Below are positions 2,644-19,305 of a stretch of DNA of 32,000 bases, one piece after another (positions within the stretch are counted from its first letter, which is position 1; every line of letters starts with the position of its first letter). Under the pieces are notes generated by a model that saw nothing but the letters and a program-made list of their open reading frames with translations, made no database searches and had not been told where the DNA came from. The DNA comes from Nostoc sp. PCC 7120 = FACHB-418 (lineage in GTDB: Bacteria; Cyanobacteriota; Cyanobacteriia; Cyanobacteriales; Nostocaceae), in contig NC_003272.1 of the NCBI RefSeq assembly GCF_000009705.1, positions 960,001 to 992,000 of the forward strand. The letters are read 5' to 3'. The translations under genes were made by a program, and so were the position numbers.

Positions 2644-2964
2644 TTATCCCTGGAAGTGTATGGTACTATCAGAGTTATACTACATTCATCCTCAGTATTC
2701 AACTAAATCTTGATAGATAAACCGTAGTTCAAATTTTACACTGAGGAATTGTTCTGTTCATCTCTTGCATTGAAGATTAAAATAGCCACTGCATAAGCAT
2801 CAGGACAAGACAAAGCCGCAGATTAGCCTACGCAAGCACTGGAATAACCTTGGACTTAATTATTAAGAACTTTAAACTATTTAAGTAATTACGATATTGC
2901 GACTAATTTACTGAAGAATTATGTTGGTATTGGGAATTACTAAGAGTAAGTGGGTAGTAGATTA

Positions 2965-4083
2965 ATGTCGCTGAATGTAGAAGTCTTAGGCAATGAATCC
3001 ATGCCAATTGTGGATCGAGAAAATAAAAATTCAGTTAATTCTCTAGCACAACAATGGGCGAAAAAGTATTTACAGAATATCCAAATTGATGACGGATCTG
3101 AAGAGCGTAACGATGTCTTGTCTTTGTCAGAAGTTGTATCATCAACTGGGCGACAAAGAACTGCAAACAAAATCATGGAATCTTTGCGGACTGTTAGTGC
3201 TAAAGCCTGGAATAAAACAGAAGCTCTCTTATCGACACAAATCAAACAGCACAATATAAATCCTAATCTGATTAATCCCTGGGAAGTAGCAGGAGATTCC
3301 TTCAAAATTTATCAAAAAACTTTAGATGTATACACTCAACAAACTACGCACAGACCACTCTCTCTAGTGATGAATCAACTGGTTGAAAGCAATTCACTGG
3401 ACGGAACAGCGCCAGATATCTATACAGAACAAATAGCCCCTAATAAATTAGCTACAGTCATTGGTGCAGATATAGGAGCTATGAGAAATAAGTACACCAG
3501 TGTTGATCCGAGAGTGATTGGTTTTGTTAGTATGCAGTTTCATTATACTAGTCAAATGTTGATACAACCGCTCGAACCTCTGGAGCGATCGCTTGTTAGT
3601 GCATACTTTAAAGTCATTGATGATCATCTCTATATGCCGTTACAACGTGCTTACGAAGCGGCTGCAAATCATGACTATAATTCCCCAGCTATGTCCGCAG
3701 TGCAACGATTATTACCGATGAGTAGCCAAATTGCCAAAAAGATTTGTCACAGGGTGATTGAAATCTATCCAAGTTACAGTTCTATGTCCGGTATTTTGAG
3801 TGACCCTATTGTCAAAGTATCTAGTGTTAGAGATGTAGAAATGTTCCAGGTATATCTGTGGGTATGTGCTTTAGAGGAAAGTGTTGCATCTATTCAACAA
3901 GAATTATTTCCCCTATGTGTAATGCTGTATCCCAGATTGAAAGTGCATTGGGAATTAGTGCGGCAAATGTTGCACTTACTGGGACAGGAAATACAACATT
4001 GCCTAACTCCTGAACAATGTAAAACTTTAATGCCATATTTTCAGGTATTGTGGGATATGTTCTCACCGGATGTGTTGAGTTAA
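2965..4083 (+). CDS. Hypothetical protein (about 372 aa)
   Basis: Long ORF. The track starts it at GTG 2950; ATG 2965 is the first ATG. I recognise no confident family. The C-terminal segment SSVRDVEMFQVYLWVCALEE only faintly resembles a phycobiliprotein-like helical motif. Confidence 0.6.
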   Translation: MSLNVEVLGNESMPIVDRENKNSVNSLAQQWAKKYLQNIQIDDGSEERNDVLSLSEVVSSTGRQRTANKIMESLRTVSAKAWNKTEALLSTQIKQHNINPNLINPWEVAGDSFKIYQKTLDVYTQQTTHRPLSLVMNQLVESNSLDGTAPDIYTEQIAPNKLATVIGADIGAMRNKYTSVDPRVIGFVSMQFHYTSQMLIQPLEPLERSLVSAYFKVIDDHLYMPLQRAYEAAANHDYNSPAMSAVQRLLPMSSQIAKKICHRVIEIYPSYSSMSGILSDPIVKVSSVRDVEMFQVYLWVCALEESVASIQQELFPLCVMLYPRLKVHWELVRQMLHLLGQEIQHCLTPEQCKTLMPYFQVLWDMFSPDVLS

Positions 4084-4165
4084 CGTTTATCAACAATATT
4101 CTCGTGGCTTAAGTCTAAAAATTCCTTGAACGGTTACTAGAATAGGAGTAATTATTGATAATATA

Positions 4166-5119
4166 TCAAGCTAAACAACTAGCAATTGTTGCTAAAACAG
4201 ACTGAGAAAGCGTAGGCAAATCATAGCCACCTTCTAAACCAAATAACATTTTACGGGTTATTTCCAAACAATAATTAGTGAATAAACCATAGTCTTTTGG
4301 TTGCAGATTGACGCTAGCTAGAGGATCGTCAGCATTACCATCATAACCAGCACTAACAATCAGTAAATCTGGCTGAAAGTCTTCTAAAAACGGCATTATC
4401 TTTTTTTCCCATAATGGCTGATATACAGCCATATCACTACCAGGTGGTACGGGCAGATTTAACACATTATTATGAAAACCCTTTTCTGTGGCTCTACCTG
4501 TTCCAGGATAACAGGGGTACTGATGGAGAGAACAGTAAGCAATTTGGGGATTAATTTCCACGATCGCCTGTGTACCATTACCATGATGTACATCCCAATC
4601 AATAATGGCGACACGCTTAATTCCTGGCTGTTCTAAGGCATAATGAGCTGCGATCGCTGCATTAGAAAATAGACAAAATCCCATCCCTGCGTCGCCTTCT
4701 GCATGGTGTCCTGGTGGACGTGCCAATACAAAAGCCGGATTGGCTGTCTCTAACACAGTATCGATGCCGTTTAACCAAGCACTCACCGCCAATAAAGCTA
4801 CATCATAACTACGGGGTGAGACTGGTGTATCGCCATCCAAATAACCGCCGCCAGTAGTAGCAATTTCCCTGACTTTATTCACATAACCTGGGCTATGAAC
4901 CTTTACTAGAAGCGGCATTACAGATGAGTTTTCTAGGGCTGGTGTAGGTTCAATCCATCTGATCTTTTCCGCAAACGCAGCCTGTTTTAGTGCGTTAACA
5001 ATCGCTGTCAAACGTTCTGGGCTTTCTGGGTGATATTTGCCAGTTTTGTGATCTAGGAACTCATCAGAATATATGACTGGAAACATGGCGGGAGATGGAC
5101 AGCAGGATACTGAAGCCAT
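4166..5119 (-). CDS. Histone deacetylase-family enzyme (acetoin utilisation / acetylpolyamine amidohydrolase-like)
   Basis: It carries the classical HDAC motifs RPPGHHAE, IIDWDVHHGNGTQ, SAGYDG and LEGGY. An alternative start at ATG 5086 (MFPVIYSDEFLDH) is possible. Confidence 0.9.
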   Translation of the reverse strand: MASVSCCPSPAMFPVIYSDEFLDHKTGKYHPESPERLTAIVNALKQAAFAEKIRWIEPTPALENSSVMPLLVKVHSPGYVNKVREIATTGGGYLDGDTPVSPRSYDVALLAVSAWLNGIDTVLETANPAFVLARPPGHHAEGDAGMGFCLFSNAAIAAHYALEQPGIKRVAIIDWDVHHGNGTQAIVEINPQIAYCSLHQYPCYPGTGRATEKGFHNNVLNLPVPPGSDMAVYQPLWEKKIMPFLEDFQPDLLIVSAGYDGNADDPLASVNLQPKDYGLFTNYCLEITRKMLFGLEGGYDLPTLSQSVLATIASCLA

Positions 5120-5212
5120 TGTATCGTCTGTTAAGGACTGGGGATTGCTTTACTTCTTACTCCCTGTTTTTTGAACTCCTGAGGGACTTCCAGATAAAAA
5201 AATATCCCAAGT

Positions 5213-5277
5213 GTAGGGTGCGTCAGTGCGATAAAACCTAGCTACACCAAGAAATTATTCATACTGACGCACCCTAC
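5213..5277. repeat. Perfect 15-bp inverted repeat (GTAGGGTGCGTCAGT ... ACTGACGCACCCTAC) with a 35-nt spacer
   Basis: Arms are at 5213-5227 and 5263-5277, read directly. It lies in the divergent spacer between the HDAC gene and the ATPase cassette. It resembles the small dispersed repeat or MITE-like hairpins of Nostocales. Confidence 0.8.
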
Positions 5278-5300
5278 TAACTTTGTCAATCCAGGATTTC

Positions 5301-5328
5301 GCAATTGCGAACTGCGAATTGCGAATTG
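5301..5328. repeat. STRR-type heptamer tandem repeat (GCAATTG CGAACTG CGAATTG CGAATTG)
   Basis: Read directly. Confidence 0.85.
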
Positions 5329-5434
5329 GTATTAGACCACCTCGAAAGCAAGAGATCACAAAATTATTCTAAGTATGATGTTATTGTTTTGGGTAATTGC
5401 ACCAAAATCCCTGAAATAACAACAAAATTGTTAC

Positions 5435-6517
5435 ATGACCTCTGGCTCACTGCCTACTAATCCCTTTGTGGCTGCGGGGATGATAGAAGACCCCAGATTA
5501 TTTGTTGGTCGGAAAGATGAATTATATGCGATCGCCTCTCGCATGAGTGGCGCACAGCCGACAAGTATCAATATTTTCGGTGAGAAGCGCATTGGTAAAT
5601 CTTCCCTGCTGTATCATTTCTTCCTGACTTGGCAGCAACGAGTCCAAGACCCCAGTCGTTATGTAGTGGTTTACCTCTCCTTGCAAAATGTGTCTTGTCA
5701 ACGGGAGGAAGATTTTTATGTCGCTGTGGTGCAAGAGTTGCTGAAGTACTCCAGTGTGGCAACAAACCCGGCTTTAAGTGACCCGTTGAAAGTTAGACCC
5801 CTTAACCGTGCTGCTTTTGCCGATGCGGTGAGAGAGTGGAAAAGGCAAGGTGTATTGCCAGTTCTTTGTTTGGATGACTTCAAAACATTATTTGAAAACA
5901 AGAGCGAATTTAACAATGATTTTTACAATAATCTGCGCTCTTTAATGAATCATAATGCTGTGATGCTGGTCATTGCTTCAGAGAAGAAACTTGATTTTTA
6001 CAGTAACAAGCATCAATTGACATCATCTTTTTTCAATTTGGGTCATGTGATTCCACTGGGTGAACTCCAGGAAGAAGAGGTAACAGATTTACTGCGTTTG
6101 CCTGCTAGTACTGTCAATGGGGCAGCACCAGCCTTGAGTATGGATGAACAGCGTCTGAGTCAGCAATTGGCTGGGAATCATCCTTTTCTATTGCAAATTG
6201 CCGGGGGTTTGGTGTGTGAGGCGCGCCAACAAGGGCATGATGCAAGCTGGGTGAAAGTTCGTTTTCATCAAGCATCTCGACGTTTACCAAAGTCTCGACT
6301 AGGTTCACGTAAATGGTGGCGATGGATGCTTTGGCTAGTTTGGGATTTGCCCGTGCGAATAGGTCAGATATCTAAATTTATTGGCGCGGGTGTGGGGGAA
6401 GTAACTAATTGGGTGATGGGAATCGGAATTTTGGTGATGGTGGTTTTGGTGTTTGCTGGTGTCTTGCATTGGCATGATGTGTGGGATTTTGTCCGTGACA
6501 AGTTGGGGATTAAGTAG
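5435..6517 (+). CDS. P-loop ATPase (ORC/Cdc6-STAND-like, PF01637/AAA_35-type by motif) with a C-terminal membrane anchor
   Basis: Motifs in order are the N-terminal NPF...DPRLFVGRKDEL, Walker A GEKRIGKSS, Walker B VLCLDDF and the helical motif GNHPFLLQIAG. The C-terminal hydrophobic segments are WWRWMLWLVWDLP and WVMGIGILVMVVLVFAGVL. Confidence 0.8.
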   Translation: MTSGSLPTNPFVAAGMIEDPRLFVGRKDELYAIASRMSGAQPTSINIFGEKRIGKSSLLYHFFLTWQQRVQDPSRYVVVYLSLQNVSCQREEDFYVAVVQELLKYSSVATNPALSDPLKVRPLNRAAFADAVREWKRQGVLPVLCLDDFKTLFENKSEFNNDFYNNLRSLMNHNAVMLVIASEKKLDFYSNKHQLTSSFFNLGHVIPLGELQEEEVTDLLRLPASTVNGAAPALSMDEQRLSQQLAGNHPFLLQIAGGLVCEARQQGHDASWVKVRFHQASRRLPKSRLGSRKWWRWMLWLVWDLPVRIGQISKFIGAGVGEVTNWVMGIGILVMVVLVFAGVLHWHDVWDFVRDKLGIK

Positions 6518-6519
6518 CT

Positions 6520-8988
6520 ATGAGTAATAAGTCTCCAACATCAGGCTTTTGGATTTATGTAGCTGAATGTGTTCGCCTTTTATATTGGGCTTATTTTAAG
6601 CCTTACACCTATGAACGCTGGCTGCGTGATATACATCCAGAACTACAGCCCAGAAATAACCCCTTTGATAAAAAAGCTGAGTTTCGCGCTAACCCCCGAT
6701 TGCGTCGCTATGCTGGGCAGGTTTGGTGGGTAACTCTGTTAGTTCCGTTTTTTGTTGTATTGCTGATAGCACCTGTTTACACTTTGGTTAGTGGTGAGTC
6801 GTCTAGATGGTTCTTCAGCTTTATTTTTTTCTTGGGCTGGGTAATAGGAATGTGTCTAGAACCTGTTAGGGATAAATATAAACTTGCTATTTTCTTTCTT
6901 GCCTTCCTTACCACGATTTTAAGATCTATATTTTTATCAGGCTTGGCGGTAGGCGTGGTGTTTGGCTTGGCGGTAGGCGTGGTGTTTGGCTTGGCGGTAG
7001 GCGTGGTGTTCGGCGTGGCGTTCGACTTGGCGCTAGGCGTGGCGCTAGGCGTGGCGGGAGGCTTGGCGGTAGGCGTAGTGGGAGACATGGCGTTCGGCTT
7101 GGCGCTAGGCGTGGTGCGAGGAGTAGCGCTAGGCTTGGCGTTCGGCTTGGCGTTCGGCTTGGTGATAGGCGTGGCGGTAGACGTGGCGATAGGCGTGGTG
7201 TTCGGCGTGGTGATAAGCGTGGCGCTAGGCGTAGTGATAAGCGTGGCGATAGGAGTGGTGTTCGGCGTGGCGTTCGGCGTGGCGTTCGGCTTGGCGTTGA
7301 TTCTGGGCGTGTTACGGTTTTACTTCTGGTTGGTGGAATTGTTGTGGACACTCTTCCTTTTCTTTTTTTCCCCAAATGGGAAGCAGGTAAATTGCTTAAG
7401 ATACATACCCCCCCGTTTTGATGAATTAATTATTTTGCCTCTACCTTTCTTGGATCAGATGATTGTCGAGGCTTATCGAGAAAATCCTTCATCTGCCCGT
7501 GAGACAATAGATTACCTGACGACTTCTACAAATCAACAAAAAGTTGCAGTACGGGCAACTATTGGTATTACTGCCGATATTCTCAATGGCTGTCAACGGT
7601 TAGAAGATATTTTAGACATTGCTAATCAATTAACCTGGATTCCCTCCCCACCACCAAAAGAACTTGGCCTTGTCCTACCGCAATTTTTAGACATTAGCCA
7701 AAGTGTAAGAGCATCCCAAGCAGCAACTACATCCTATCGCCGATATGAGTTACTCAATCCTCCTATAAATGCTTTACAAGAACTAAAAAACAATCTGGCT
7801 TTTGGGAAAAATGCTTCATTAGCTACTAAATTCGGCAGCATAGCCGAACGCTGGCTAAGAATTTTACAGACAGCACAGCGCATTTTAGAAGAAACAGCAA
7901 AGCAATCACAAGAAATCCGCCAAGTTTACATCGCCGGTAATTCACTAGAACCGCAAACAGCCAAGTATCGTTTTAAAGGGCGAATTGATATATTTCGAGA
8001 AATCGAAACTTTGACCCTTTCCGACCAATCACAAGTATTGCTACTTTACGGTGGGCGAAGAACTGGCAAAACTTCAGCACTTAAATATCTACCTTACAGA
8101 ATTGCCCCAGATATCATTCCTTTGCTGGTAGATTTACAAGGAACCGCATCAGCCACAACTTTAAAGGGGTTCGCTGAAAATCTAGCCCGACAAATTATCG
8201 ATACTGCACGACGCTTACCCCGAACAATAAATTTGCCTAATCCAGATGCCTATAAACTAGCGGAAGATCCATTTCCCGCGCTGCAAACTTGGTTAGGAGA
8301 AATAGAACGCAGCAATTCGGGTAAGCGATTTCTTTTATGTTTAGACGAGTTTGAACGCTTGAGTGAAGTAGTTAACGCCACAAATAGCCGTGCGCCACTC
8401 AACTTTATTCGTCACCTCCTGCAACACCAAAAACAATGGATTTTGCTATTCAGTGGTTCTCACCAATTATCTGAACTTGATGCTTACTGGAGTGATTATT
8501 TAATTAACACTCGCGCCTTACGCATGACTTATCTGCAAGAGTCCGAAGCCCGTGAGTTAATTCTCAAGCCAGTAGAAGATTTTACCAACATCTATGAGCC
8601 AGAAGCAGTAGATATGATTATCCAAATTACTCGCTGTCAGCCTTATTTGGTGCAGTTGGTGTGTTACGAGTTGGTAGAATTGCTAAATCGTGATATTAGG
8701 GCAAACAGACGACAACCAAATACGGCAAAAGCCACAGTCGCGGATGTGCAAGATATCATCCCCACCGTCCTAGAACGAGGTGATCAGTATTTTCGGGAAT
8801 TATGGACAAGTTTAGAAAATAAAGATCAAAGTTTACTGCGTCGTCTCATTGATGGCGAAACTCCCACACCACAAGACAGCAAGGTAGTCAAAAAACTAGC
8901 CCGCAAGGAAATCTTGACTCCAGAAGGTAATGCTTTTCAAGTGCCTTTAGTACAGAAATTTGTCGAATATCTGCTAGAAGAAGAATAA
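6520..8988 (+). CDS. Polytopic membrane protein with a glycine-zipper repeat domain fused to a C-terminal P-loop ATPase of the same type as the upstream gene
   Basis: The ATG lies 2 nt after the upstream stop. Residues about 60-290 are hydrophobic and include 30 period-4 G-x-x-x units. The C-terminal part has Walker A GGRRTGKTS, Walker B FLLCLDEFE and CQPYLVQLVC, the counterpart of the HPFLLQIAG motif in the upstream protein. Confidence 0.8.
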   Translation: MSNKSPTSGFWIYVAECVRLLYWAYFKPYTYERWLRDIHPELQPRNNPFDKKAEFRANPRLRRYAGQVWWVTLLVPFFVVLLIAPVYTLVSGESSRWFFSFIFFLGWVIGMCLEPVRDKYKLAIFFLAFLTTILRSIFLSGLAVGVVFGLAVGVVFGLAVGVVFGVAFDLALGVALGVAGGLAVGVVGDMAFGLALGVVRGVALGLAFGLAFGLVIGVAVDVAIGVVFGVVISVALGVVISVAIGVVFGVAFGVAFGLALILGVLRFYFWLVELLWTLFLFFFSPNGKQVNCLRYIPPRFDELIILPLPFLDQMIVEAYRENPSSARETIDYLTTSTNQQKVAVRATIGITADILNGCQRLEDILDIANQLTWIPSPPPKELGLVLPQFLDISQSVRASQAATTSYRRYELLNPPINALQELKNNLAFGKNASLATKFGSIAERWLRILQTAQRILEETAKQSQEIRQVYIAGNSLEPQTAKYRFKGRIDIFREIETLTLSDQSQVLLLYGGRRTGKTSALKYLPYRIAPDIIPLLVDLQGTASATTLKGFAENLARQIIDTARRLPRTINLPNPDAYKLAEDPFPALQTWLGEIERSNSGKRFLLCLDEFERLSEVVNATNSRAPLNFIRHLLQHQKQWILLFSGSHQLSELDAYWSDYLINTRALRMTYLQESEARELILKPVEDFTNIYEPEAVDMIIQITRCQPYLVQLVCYELVELLNRDIRANRRQPNTAKATVADVQDIIPTVLERGDQYFRELWTSLENKDQSLLRRLIDGETPTPQDSKVVKKLARKEILTPEGNAFQVPLVQKFVEYLLEEE
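6940..7299 (+). repeat. Intragenic tandem array of 30 x 12 nt, opening with three near-identical 24-nt units
   Basis: GGCTTGGCGGTAGGCGTGGTGTTT occurs at 6940-6963 and 6964-6987, and once more with a single change at 6988-7011. Degenerate GGCKTGGYGNTN 12-mers then continue in register to 7299. The stretch is visibly more GC-rich than its flanks. Confidence 0.95.
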
Positions 8989-9046
8989 GTATCGGCGCTA
9001 GTTAATGGTCAGCGACTCTAGCCACACAGTACGAGCCGCTTTTAGT

Positions 9047-9289
9047 TTACTCTTTTGAAAAACCGGTCATTTCATCGGTGGGTTCGTCTAGCATTTCTGG
9101 AACTAAAGCCTGGTTTCCTCTTTTTTCCTCTGCTGATTGTTGTCGAATTACGTCATCCATTTTTGGCGGATGTTTAATCATGTCCAACACTTCTGGACTT
9201 AATTGAGAGGAATCACCTTCTGGATTGCTCTTTTCAGCTTGGCTCGGAACAGTTTCTTTATTCATGATTATTGCCCCAAATATATACAT
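9047..9289 (-). CDS. Hypothetical small acidic protein, probably disordered
   Basis: This rests on the ORF only. The alternative start at ATG 9265 (MNKETV...) is equally plausible. The sequence is E/D/S/P-rich and I recognise no family. Confidence 0.35.
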   Translation of the reverse strand: MYIFGAIIMNKETVPSQAEKSNPEGDSSQLSPEVLDMIKHPPKMDDVIRQQSAEEKRGNQALVPEMLDEPTDEMTGFSKE

Positions 9290-9696: not shown

Positions 9697-9873
9697 ATGA
9701 CCCAAGTGGTTTTAGGAGAACATGAAGGCATAGATTCAGCACTACGTCGGTTCAAACGTCAAGTTTCTAAGGCTGGTATATTAGCTGATGTTAAGTATCA
9801 TCGGCATTTTGAAACACCGTTAGAAAGACGCAAACGCAAAGCAGTGGCAGCGAGACGCAAGCGCCGTTTTTAA
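9697..9873 (+). CDS. rpsU: 30S ribosomal protein S21
   Basis: Translates to [58 protein letters not shown] (58 aa), a typical S21. A GAGGA Shine-Dalgarno lies 7-11 nt upstream. It is below the size cut-off of the ORF track. Confidence 0.9.
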
Positions 9874-11510: not shown

Positions 11511-11699
11511 CTACCAGCCAACTCTGACATCTTGAATCAAGATTGATTTGTTGTAGAGTTGCAGAATAATTAGCAGAAACACAAGAAACAGGGCCATAAA
11601 AACACCCATTACAGGGGTAGTTCCCCAGCCTGGAGCCACTTTACCATACTCAGAATTTAAAGGTCGCAGGATATCTCCCAACCTAGTGCGTTGTGCCAT
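11511..11699 (-). CDS. psbH: Photosystem II reaction centre protein H
   Basis: [50 protein letters not shown] is an unmistakable PsbH sequence. Confidence 0.95.
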
Positions 11700-19232: not shown

Positions 19233-19305
19233 GCCCCCATCGTCTAGAGGCCTAGGACACCTCCCTTTCACGGAGGTAACGGGGATTCGAATTCCCCTGG
19301 GGGTA
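19233..19305 (+). tRNA. tRNA-Glu (anticodon UUC)
   Basis: It folds as a cloverleaf. The acceptor is GCCCCCA/TGGGGGT with a G1-U72 pair, the D arm GTCT/GGAC, the anticodon stem CCTCC/GGAGG with loop CTTTCAC, and the T arm GGGGA-TTCGAAT-TCCCC. The discriminator is A and no CCA is encoded. The sequence is typical of cyanobacterial and plastid tRNA-Glu. Confidence 0.95.

Follow-up and report, generated by a model that had tools for sequence, protein, structure and literature searches.

Do two adjacent ATPase genes of Nostoc sp. PCC 7120 = FACHB-418 encode the two halves of a single membrane-bound switch and, if so, does that switch serve biological conflict or cell death? The genes, here called A and B, lie in a 32,000-nucleotide (nt) stretch of contig NC_003272.1 (assembly GCF_000009705.1, forward-strand positions 960,001 to 992,000), which is referred to throughout as the window and is numbered from its own first letter. 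A first-pass annotation of the bare sequence had read them as a candidate conflict or cell-death module made of two membrane-anchored ATPases. The present analysis favours, at a probability of roughly 45%, a reading in which A and B each contribute a subunit to a single STAND/NLR-type switch, which is membrane-bound and driven by nucleotide, is accessory, is inherited as a unit, and belongs to the conflict or cell-death class.

Two homologous ATPases anchored at opposite ends

The open reading frames (ORFs) of A and B are separated by 2 nt (CT, in the context AAG TAG ct ATG, with the TAG at 6515-6517 and the ATG at 6520). Translation places the motifs FVGRKDEL, GEKRIGKSS, VLCLDDF and HPFLLQIAG in A, and FKGRIDIF, GGRRTGKTS, FLLCLDEFE and QPYLVQLVC in B. 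Searches found 439 homologues of A and 462 of B, and conservation was scored on alignments of 52 and 58 of them, respectively. In addition to the Walker residues of A (Table 1), its F23, G25 and R26 are invariant as part of the FxGRxxE layout; in B, the invariant residues are G511, R513, G516, K517, T518, S519, D609 and E610. The two ATPase modules are homologous to one another, with an hhalign probability of 97.3% and an E value of 2e-11 over A residues 22-267 and B residues 484-725. In Pfam, A matches AAA_35 (PF14516; 35.4 bits versus a cut-off of 27) and ATPase_2 (PF01637; 35.7 versus 33.2), and B matches nSTAND1 (PF20703; 31.9 bits versus 27.1, residues 574-815), with AAA_22 also above threshold and precomputed PF20703 matches for many B orthologues.

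The AlphaFold2 (AF2) model of A, with a mean predicted local distance difference test (pLDDT) score of 86.4, consists of a nucleotide-binding domain, a helical lid and long helices that run toward the membrane, without a winged helix; A is therefore unlikely to be an autonomous switch. Foldseek ranks archaeal Orc1/Cdc6, the PF01637 ATPases 2qen and 2fna, TnsC and DnaA highest among its fold matches, with plant NLR resistosome structures (NRC4, NRC2, Sr35) lower. The model of B has a mean pLDDT of 73.4, being confident in its soluble part and below 50 over residues 159-245; its secondary structure comprises a beta-alpha core (506-669), a lid (694-727) and a C-terminal helical/winged-helix part (740-822), and Foldseek matches it to Orc1/Cdc6 and 2qen (TM-score of 0.62, normalised to 2qen). 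The C-terminus of a distant B family member matches MarR_2. Profile searches of Protein Data Bank sequences returned no relative. By sequence and predicted fold, both proteins belong to the ORC/Cdc6-STAND assemblage, and A is, on the same grounds, a putatively cytoplasmic ORC/Cdc6-STAND-like P-loop ATPase with a membrane tail.

By hydropathy and charge distribution, A is strongly hydrophobic over a single span (residues ~319-350), which lies in a C-terminal tail modelled by AF2 as helices at 288-316 and 322-340; the transmembrane helix itself is placed at residues ~323-347. The tail is conserved among cyanobacterial and Chloroflexota A proteins and is missing from the A-like partners found in Anaerolineales and an archaeon. 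In B, residues 1-63 form a basic, conserved N-terminus on the cytoplasmic side, and next comes a polytopic membrane module that is flanked by the motifs YWxYFKP and LRVYFWLPELLW, both kept as far as Chloroflexota and an archaeon. Both ATPase modules are predicted to be cytoplasmic, with A anchored by its C-terminal tail and B by its N-terminal polytopic domain. A comparison with KAP P-loop NTPases found the transmembrane segments outside the ATPase (C-terminal in A, N-terminal in B) and no KAP_NTPase match. The first-pass annotation had claimed two same-strand ORFs 2 nt apart, a shared set of ATPase motifs, one ATPase architecture, mirror-image topology and ORC/Cdc6-STAND domain assignments; the ORF listing and the sequence confirm the first, the motifs are all present in both proteins and are invariant or nearly so in the 52 A and 58 B homologues, and the hhalign result, the hydropathy and charge profiles, and the Pfam matches (AAA_35/ATPase_2 for A, nSTAND1 for B) bear out the remaining three.

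Within the membrane module of B, glycine-zipper units occupy residues ~140-260; the repeated (G/A/S)xxxGxxxG pattern is conserved in homologues, and the length of the array varies among them. Otherwise identical B proteins from near-identical strains or metagenomes (e.g. L060, 1279-3723, and P0001) differ only by in-frame array indels of 8 or 8+24 amino acids, which may be slippage polymorphism or repeat collapse in short-read assemblies. Two minus-strand ORFs rich in Pro, Thr, Arg and Ser (6777-7088, 103 amino acids; 6926-7375, 149 amino acids) cross the 12-nt repeat of the array and are almost certainly its by-products, not genes. The middle helical domain that separates the membrane module from the ATPase matches no Pfam family. 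A C-terminal repeat sensor (TPR, WD40, LRR) was not found in B, whose winged helix ends at residue 822 and which has no repeat-domain matches. A putative catalytic set in the B N-terminus (E16, C17, H39) was rejected, as these residues are lost in distant members.

The two genes are obligately linked. A scan of one genome per species yielded 56 loci with a B relative. Upstream DNA is available for 52 of these, and 51 of the 52, Chloroflexota included, have an A relative immediately before B; the other four loci begin inside B and are not assessable, and the single departure (L052, 8001-9050) is a lone B fragment without A, covering residues 466-816, at a second Anabaena azotica locus. The gap between A and B is exactly 2 nt in 26 of the 44 two-gene loci, and it is at most 8 nt, or the genes overlap, in 35 of the 44. 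Repeats of 130-500 bp (heptamer arrays and palindromic elements resembling miniature inverted-repeat transposable elements) are inserted between A and B at L018, L020, L029, L035, L044 and L051, where the two genes nevertheless stay together. Other irregular loci are L050, which carries an extra divergent A paralogue (4131-6374, 37% identity) between A and B, and L017, where A is fragmented and the N-terminus of B is duplicated.

The pair extends well beyond cyanobacteria. It occurs in Chloroflexota (L055 and L056, with 46-47% identity) and also on metagenomic contigs in which the A stop and the B start overlap. A profile of the N-terminal half of B, searched against 1.84 billion representatives, matched 592 clusters (at 50% identity) with E values of at most 1e-10, and the named members from this search include Chloroflexota, Anaerolineales and one Candidatus Altiarchaeales archaeon. 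In the Anaerolineales and the archaeon, an A-like NTPase again stands before B, with 29-31% identity to A and no transmembrane tail; the ATPase pair is therefore old, and its mirror-image anchoring is a cyanobacterial and Chloroflexota trait. Overall, the named hosts are filamentous and Pleurocapsales-type cyanobacteria, Chloroflexota/Anaerolineales and the one Altiarchaeales archaeon. On two Chloroflexota-type contigs, A overlaps an upstream gene, encoding a 1242-amino-acid RNase HII-DEAD_2 helicase fusion in one (L070, 4276-8004) and a 93-amino-acid XRE-type helix-turn-helix protein in the other (L073, 2252-2533); these genes may be lineage-specific operon additions.

An accessory cassette with exchangeable domains

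The genes that flank the pair in the window are not conserved beside it elsewhere. One context recurs in Nostoc and Nodularia and is weighed below; the pairs of Calothrix and Rivularia share another, and a dozen loci are unique. Conserved neighbours across the 56 loci comprise psbD, an ABC ATPase gene, the NYN gene, BlaR1/BlaI-like genes, ComB and rfb genes, and the neighbours in the unique contexts include tRNA synthetases, ClpC, TrkA and a lipase. Further, related genomes keep the flanks without A and B at the syntenic site: in Nostoc sp. TCL26-01, a c20-like ORF, the histone deacetylase (HDAC)-family gene and a small ORF stand in a row; in Anabaena PCC 7108, the NYN...BlaR1-BlaI-ComB flanks are kept and NifH-like and NblA genes replace the pair; and in Nostoc NIES-3756, unrelated genes follow the NYN gene. 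The gene order is c20-A-B-HDAC-small ORF in Anabaena azotica and HDAC-A-B-small ORF in the window, and comparison with the Anabaena azotica locus delimits a co-moving block at about 5378-8993, in which neither terminal repeats nor a transposase were found. With variable flanks, and with the same flanks found in related genomes where the pair is missing, A and B make up an accessory cassette. The first-pass annotation had held that its module would fall if homologues of the two genes were usually unlinked, or if the pair sat in strictly conserved core synteny with a demonstrable housekeeping role; instead, they are linked in 51 of 52 assessable loci, and three related genomes keep the flanks without the pair.

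Two other searches around the pair came back empty. Close strains without the pair were sought through an identical rpsU protein, and every contig so found carries the pair and, at 99.8% identity or more, comes from the same species. Clustering of the flanking ORFs of the 56 loci revealed no conserved third gene, and the small ORFs that separate B from the BlaR1-like gene proved to be transporters or artefacts of repeats.

Relatives of both proteins exchange their N-terminal domains. Proteins with about 50% identity to A and the same transmembrane tail carry, at the N-terminus, a Trypsin_2 domain (P0194, E value of 6e-15), a bacterial Death-like domain 1 (bDLD1; P0219, 4e-12), EAD1 (P0224, 6e-27), or an unnamed helical domain (P0192, P0202 and P0208); on readable contigs, the extended A genes are again followed by B. 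The A-like partner of Anaerolineales has a marginal N-terminal EAD7-like domain (31.2 bits versus a cut-off of 32), and A-like relatives match nSTAND1 or nSTAND2, the former a family named in PMC8195603. According to PMC7159879 and PMC8195603, EAD, Death-like and trypsin domains define NTP-dependent conflict systems of multicellular prokaryotes, and the presence of Trypsin_2, bDLD1 and EAD1 on A relatives strengthens the connection with conflict and death systems that had been suggested at first sight.

On the B side, P0444 and P0443 have CHASE2 in place of the glycine-zipper module and retain the B middle domain along with a closely similar ATPase; an A homologue with a transmembrane tail lies before P0444. 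The complete 1434-amino-acid protein P0495 (Nostoc sp.) combines TPR, nSTAND1 and CHASE2 with a B-type middle helical domain at its end, and P0506 (1075 amino acids) contains two tandem copies of the B membrane module; this module and the middle domain therefore behave as independent evolutionary units. Together, the N-terminal swaps point to two exchangeable ports, one for an effector or adaptor at the N-terminus of A and one for a membrane or extracytoplasmic module at the N-terminus of B. A distant relative of the B ATPase (28% identity) was also seen on Acinetobacter ursingii plasmid NZ_MH220285.1 (L074, 196986-200957), where it is fused to the C-terminal end of an N6 DNA methylase; the operon also encodes a second ATP-binding protein and the R subunit of a type I restriction system.

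Both proteins evolve ~2-3 times faster than the products of the flanking genes. Between three Nostocaceae lineages, A is 58% identical and the soluble part of B 76% identical, versus 76-91% (mostly about 85%) for five flanking genes; within the lineages, the values are about 80%, 80-83% and 88-98%, respectively. These identities imply that A and B are both faster-evolving than their neighbours and that A has undergone lineage-specific bursts. The divergence of A is concentrated at residues 101-120, 201-220, 241-260 and 281-300.

A short leader travels with the pair. It contains a -10-like TAnnnTGnTAT at 5375-5386, with an invariant TAT at 5382-5384, followed by an inverted repeat at 5387-5407 (TTTTGGGTAATTGCACCAAAA; family consensus TTTTAAGTG-ATTG-CACTTAAAA) that lies 25-45 nt before the A start codon. 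In an alignment of 20 Nostocaceae loci, the repeat is 85.5% paired, versus 29-55% with the partner columns slid; its covariation is weak (reached by 10 of 500 shuffles), and the RNA fold of the window sequence falls short of significance (z of -0.54). The repeat may be an operator or a leader hairpin or element. Table 1 lists the features of the cassette and its surroundings.

Table 1. Coordinates of the A-B cassette, its parts and its neighbours in the window.
Feature	Position	Strand	Remarks
Conserved leader/promoter block	5375-5434	+	Travels with the pair; DNA homology to the Anabaena azotica locus starts at 5378
Gene A	5435-6517	+	360 amino acids; ORF listing
A Walker A, GEKRIGKSS	5579-5605	+	Residues 49-57; G49, G54, K55 and S56 invariant in 52 homologues
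A Walker B, VLCLDDF	5861-5881	+	Residues 143-149; C145 and D147 invariant in 52 homologues
A C-terminal membrane tail	6323-6475	+	Basic juxtamembrane stretch, amphipathic helix WRWMLWLVWDLPVRIG, one predicted transmembrane helix
Gene B	6520-8988	+	822 amino acids; ORF listing
B polytopic membrane module	6709-7374	+	Residues ~64-285; predicted from hydropathy and positive-inside charge pattern
Glycine-zipper array (G-x-x-x)n	6939-7298	+	Tandem Repeats Finder: period of 12 nt, 30 copies, 74% matches
B middle helical (juxtamembrane) domain	7435-7956	+	Residues ~306-479; pLDDT ~80-90; many invariant residues
B NTPase-lid-winged-helix module	7969-8985	+	Residues 484-822
B Walker A, GGRRTGKTS	8050-8076	+	Invariant GxxxxGKT/S
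B Walker B, FLLCLDEFE	8329-8355	+	Invariant hhhhDE
Hist_deacetyl (HDAC-family) gene	4166-5119	minus	Upstream of A, divergent
Perfect 15-nt inverted repeat, 35-nt loop	5213-5227 / 5263-5277		Between HDAC gene and cassette
Heptamer AATTGCG, 3.7 copies	5303-5328		Between HDAC gene and cassette
80-amino-acid ORF	9047-9289	minus	Downstream of B, convergent
rpsU	9697-9873		Downstream of the 80-amino-acid ORF

The surroundings of the cassette are as the first-pass annotation had described them, with the HDAC-family gene upstream and the convergent small ORF and rpsU downstream. The small ORF is conserved (77-82% nucleotide identity) and adjoins the HDAC-family gene in Anabaena azotica and Nostoc sp. 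TCL26-01; in the window, the cassette splits this conserved gene pair. The upstream inverted repeat and short tandem repeat block that had been pointed out are both real, though they lie outside the co-moving homology block, which starts at ~5378, and are for that reason not counted in the module; the sequence of the 15-nt inverted repeat has no other copy within the window. Contig JACJQC010000010.1 of assembly GCA_014696465.1 matches the window at 99.995% identity. A 377-amino-acid ORF at 2950-4083 (+) has a sub-threshold match of its C-terminal third to phycobilisome proteins (E value of 5e-4, 20.5 bits versus a cut-off of 22.2). Two Rfam matches are unrelated to the pair: a psbN 5′ untranslated region RNA element at 11598-11658 (+), with psbH and psbN as its neighbours in the L057 annotation, and one tRNA at 19233-19305 (+).

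A possible membrane switch and its rivals

From the combined features, we infer a trigger, a direction of signalling, hetero-oligomerisation and a lethal output for the proposed switch. The membrane module of B, a glycine zipper here and CHASE2 in some relatives, would detect a disturbance in or beyond the membrane, and the middle helical domain would relay the signal to the ATPase-winged-helix switch of B. ATP-bound B would co-assemble with its paralogue A, and the resulting membrane-apposed A-B oligomer would be the output platform. In relatives, the output would sit at the N-terminus of A, as a fused trypsin-like protease or as EAD1/Death-like adaptors that recruit effectors; the window version, with no enzymatic effector, offers only the clustering of its transmembrane segments (the A tails and the B glycine zipper) as a visible output, and such clustering might permeabilise the membrane and so arrest or kill the cell. 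Within a filament, one cell would be sacrificed to contain phage or other damage. B is favoured as the input and transducer because it has a complete nucleotide-binding domain-lid-winged-helix switch, a membrane module that is exchangeable for CHASE2, and a conserved juxtamembrane domain; A is favoured as the co-assembling output partner because it has no winged helix and because effector and adaptor domains attach to it in relatives. A more elaborate form of this scheme, which we judge distinctly improbable, would make the pair a membrane-built counterpart of sensor/helper NLR pairs, in which an envelope or membrane signal read by the exchangeable membrane module of B leads to a resistosome-like A-B ring with a transmembrane channel and to altruistic single-cell death (for phage containment or necridium-type filament breakage), with the array acting as a contingency-like tuner of threshold or specificity.

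The conflict or cell-death assignment made by the first-pass annotation stands as far as linkage, accessory status and family ties are concerned, and it fares poorly on defence-model matches, on a phage link and on the housekeeping neighbours. A series of findings weighs against such an assignment. The pair lies between an NYN/YacP gene and a BlaR1/BlaI-like pair in ~27 Nostoc and Nodularia genomes, its neighbours are mostly housekeeping genes, and its absence from the three comparison genomes holds for the syntenic site, not genome-wide. PADLOC-DB v2, which includes Avs, bNACHT and PDC candidates, gave no significant full-length match: the check that had been proposed returned only weak partial P-loop matches for both proteins (E values in the range 0.003-0.02), the best being PDC-S27 to A residues 23-64 in the P-loop region (0.0026), with a best value of 0.0098 for B. 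An NCBIfam scan of A and B gave nothing meaningful. Orthologues were not found on phages, viral contigs or plasmids, where the distant methylase-fused ATPase of Acinetobacter plasmids was the sole match, and 128 neighbour representatives revealed no consistent defence island, only scattered restriction-modification, AbiLi or AriA-like matches. Moreover, Pfam finds no effector, EAD or adaptor domain in the A of the window, the repeat-type sensor of pattern-recognising STANDs is present in neither protein, B is 47-50% identical across cyanobacterial orders and phyla (above what is usual for fast-evolving immune genes), and the glycine-zipper region of B has no confident AF2 model.

The stable NYN/YacP-BlaR1-like position, the housekeeping neighbours, the weak partial defence matches and the lack of a mobile-element link would equally suit a membrane signalling or maintenance pair outside any conflict, serving envelope or thylakoid stress, developmental cell death or filament breakage and inherited vertically with losses, as would the apparently single copy, the well-conserved B and the role of CHASE2 as a general signalling input domain. 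We nevertheless regard this account as unlikely, given the presence, absence and relocation of the pair among related genomes, its close homologues in Chloroflexota (46-47% identity), the ~2-3-fold faster evolution of A and B relative to flanking genes, and the fusions in the family to Death-like, EAD and trypsin domains. The same fusions bear on the polarity of the switch. In the version proposed by the first-pass annotation, A would sense or regulate and the glycine zipper of B would form an oligomeric, resistosome-like pore gated by the ATPases. Arrays of (G/A/S)xxxGxxxG are a packing motif known from channel-forming proteins, and no feature of B is as striking or as constant as the array, which is kept from cyanobacteria to the archaeon; it occupies the N-terminal site where NLR convention puts effectors, the A of the window offers no other effector, and A diverges faster, as expected for a specificity determinant. 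This polarity is doubtful, in that Trypsin, EAD1 and bDLD1 attach to A and not to B, the 8-32 residue length changes in otherwise identical B proteins are hard to fit to a fixed pore, and the glycine zipper can be swapped for the sensor-type CHASE2 while the rest of B and its A partner stay. The pore is weakened by this swap, which implies that the membrane module may be an input rather than a weapon, and it is conjecture because AF2 gives no confident structural model for the array.

A further possibility makes A an antagonist, a guard or antitoxin-like paralogue that keeps B inactive until its loss or titration frees the membrane toxicity of B. The constant upstream position of A and its translational coupling, its faster evolution and its lack of the winged helix of a complete switch would fit, and paralogous pro-death/anti-death pairs are a known regulatory theme (PMC8195603); we find this very unlikely, as the catalytic motifs of A are fully conserved, the effector and adaptor domains on A relatives suit output better than inhibition, and no plasmid or mobile-element addiction context was seen. 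Lastly, A matches Pfam TniB (E value of 1e-6) and TnsC is among its Foldseek matches, as would be expected of TniB/TnsC-like AAA+ transposon regulators. That role is exceedingly improbable and was rejected: no transposase, TniQ or element ends lie beside the pair in the window or the 56 loci, A and B are membrane-anchored, the same position is kept across many species, and the TniB match reflects the common AAA+ core only.

Relation to known systems

One close likeness is to the EAD-coupled conflict systems described by Kaur, Burroughs, Iyer and Aravind (PMC7159879, PMC8195603), which share with the A-B family an nSTAND1-type NTPase, the EAD1, bDLD1 (EAD3) and trypsin domains seen on A relatives, an occurrence in filamentous cyanobacteria and Chloroflexota, and a constant core with variable modules. 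The accessory locus and variable modules that mark those systems are found here as relocation, swaps at the N-terminus of A and a swap of the B membrane module. In contrast to them, the pair in the window has no EAD, enzymatic effector, vWA-MoxR, GTPase or caspase partner. A fixed paralogous NTPase pair, a glycine-zipper module and the middle helical domain do not occur in the searched text of the two papers. Likewise, the obligatory ATPase pair, opposite-end anchoring, the (GxxxG)30 array and the middle domain have no description in the consulted portions of the Aravind-group papers, the bNACHT preprint and the main text of the 2026 STAND survey.

Paired sensor/helper NLRs (RGA4/RGA5, the NRC network and NAIP-NLRC4) and resistosome channels resemble A and B in that two linked, paralogous ATPases of the NOD type presumably divide the labour, and oligomerisation at the membrane would, by analogy, be the common output. 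The resemblance is one of analogy only, at 10-15% identity, and ORC/Cdc6 and PF01637 ATPases match better; unlike the NLR pairs, A and B lack LRR, TPR and WD40 domains, are both membrane proteins from the start, and are encoded by co-directional, translationally coupled genes, not head-to-head ones. The anti-phage STANDs Avs and bNACHT share the STAND NTPase core, and PMC13581612 and bioRxiv 10.1101/2022.07.19.500537 note that bNACHT proteins are abundant in cyanobacteria and that some have transmembrane regions read as sensors of membrane or periplasmic signals. As described there, an Avs or bNACHT system consists of one gene, whose product has a large sensor at the C-terminus and an enzymatic effector at the N-terminus, unlike the A-B pair, which the PADLOC models (candidate STAND systems included) miss and which has no defence-island context.

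The best structural matches, the archaeal PF01637 ATPases (2qen, 2fna) and Orc1/Cdc6, share FxGRxxE, Walker A and B, the lid and the winged helix of B; they differ in being soluble, not so paired, of DNA-related or unknown roles, and 13-16% identical to A and B. In cyanobacteria, CHASE2, an extracytoplasmic sensor-type domain, is fused to caspase-like proteases, kinases or cyclases, and its presence in some B relatives suggests a common plan of input in or beyond the membrane and output in the cytoplasm; the B of the window differs in having no CHASE2 and in using, as its cytoplasmic module, a STAND ATPase with an obligatory ATPase partner.

Innate immunity and regulated cell death centre on STAND/NLR ATPase switches in animals, plants, fungi and bacteria. 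To our knowledge, nearly all characterised bacterial STANDs consist of one soluble protein that combines a large repeat sensor with an enzymatic effector. The cassette departs from them in its obligatory paralogous pair, its opposite-end tethering, its lack of a repeat sensor and its expandable glycine-zipper array, and its family is large (592 clusters at 50% identity, from two bacterial phyla and one archaeon). If A and B form a housekeeping signalling module, they show a non-immune use of paired STAND switches. If they form a membrane-triggered death or defence switch, they extend the repertoire of bacterial NLRs by a design that is heteromeric and integral to the membrane, and provide a compact two-gene handle on single-cell sacrifice in filamentous bacteria and on the question of programmed cell death in cyanobacteria.

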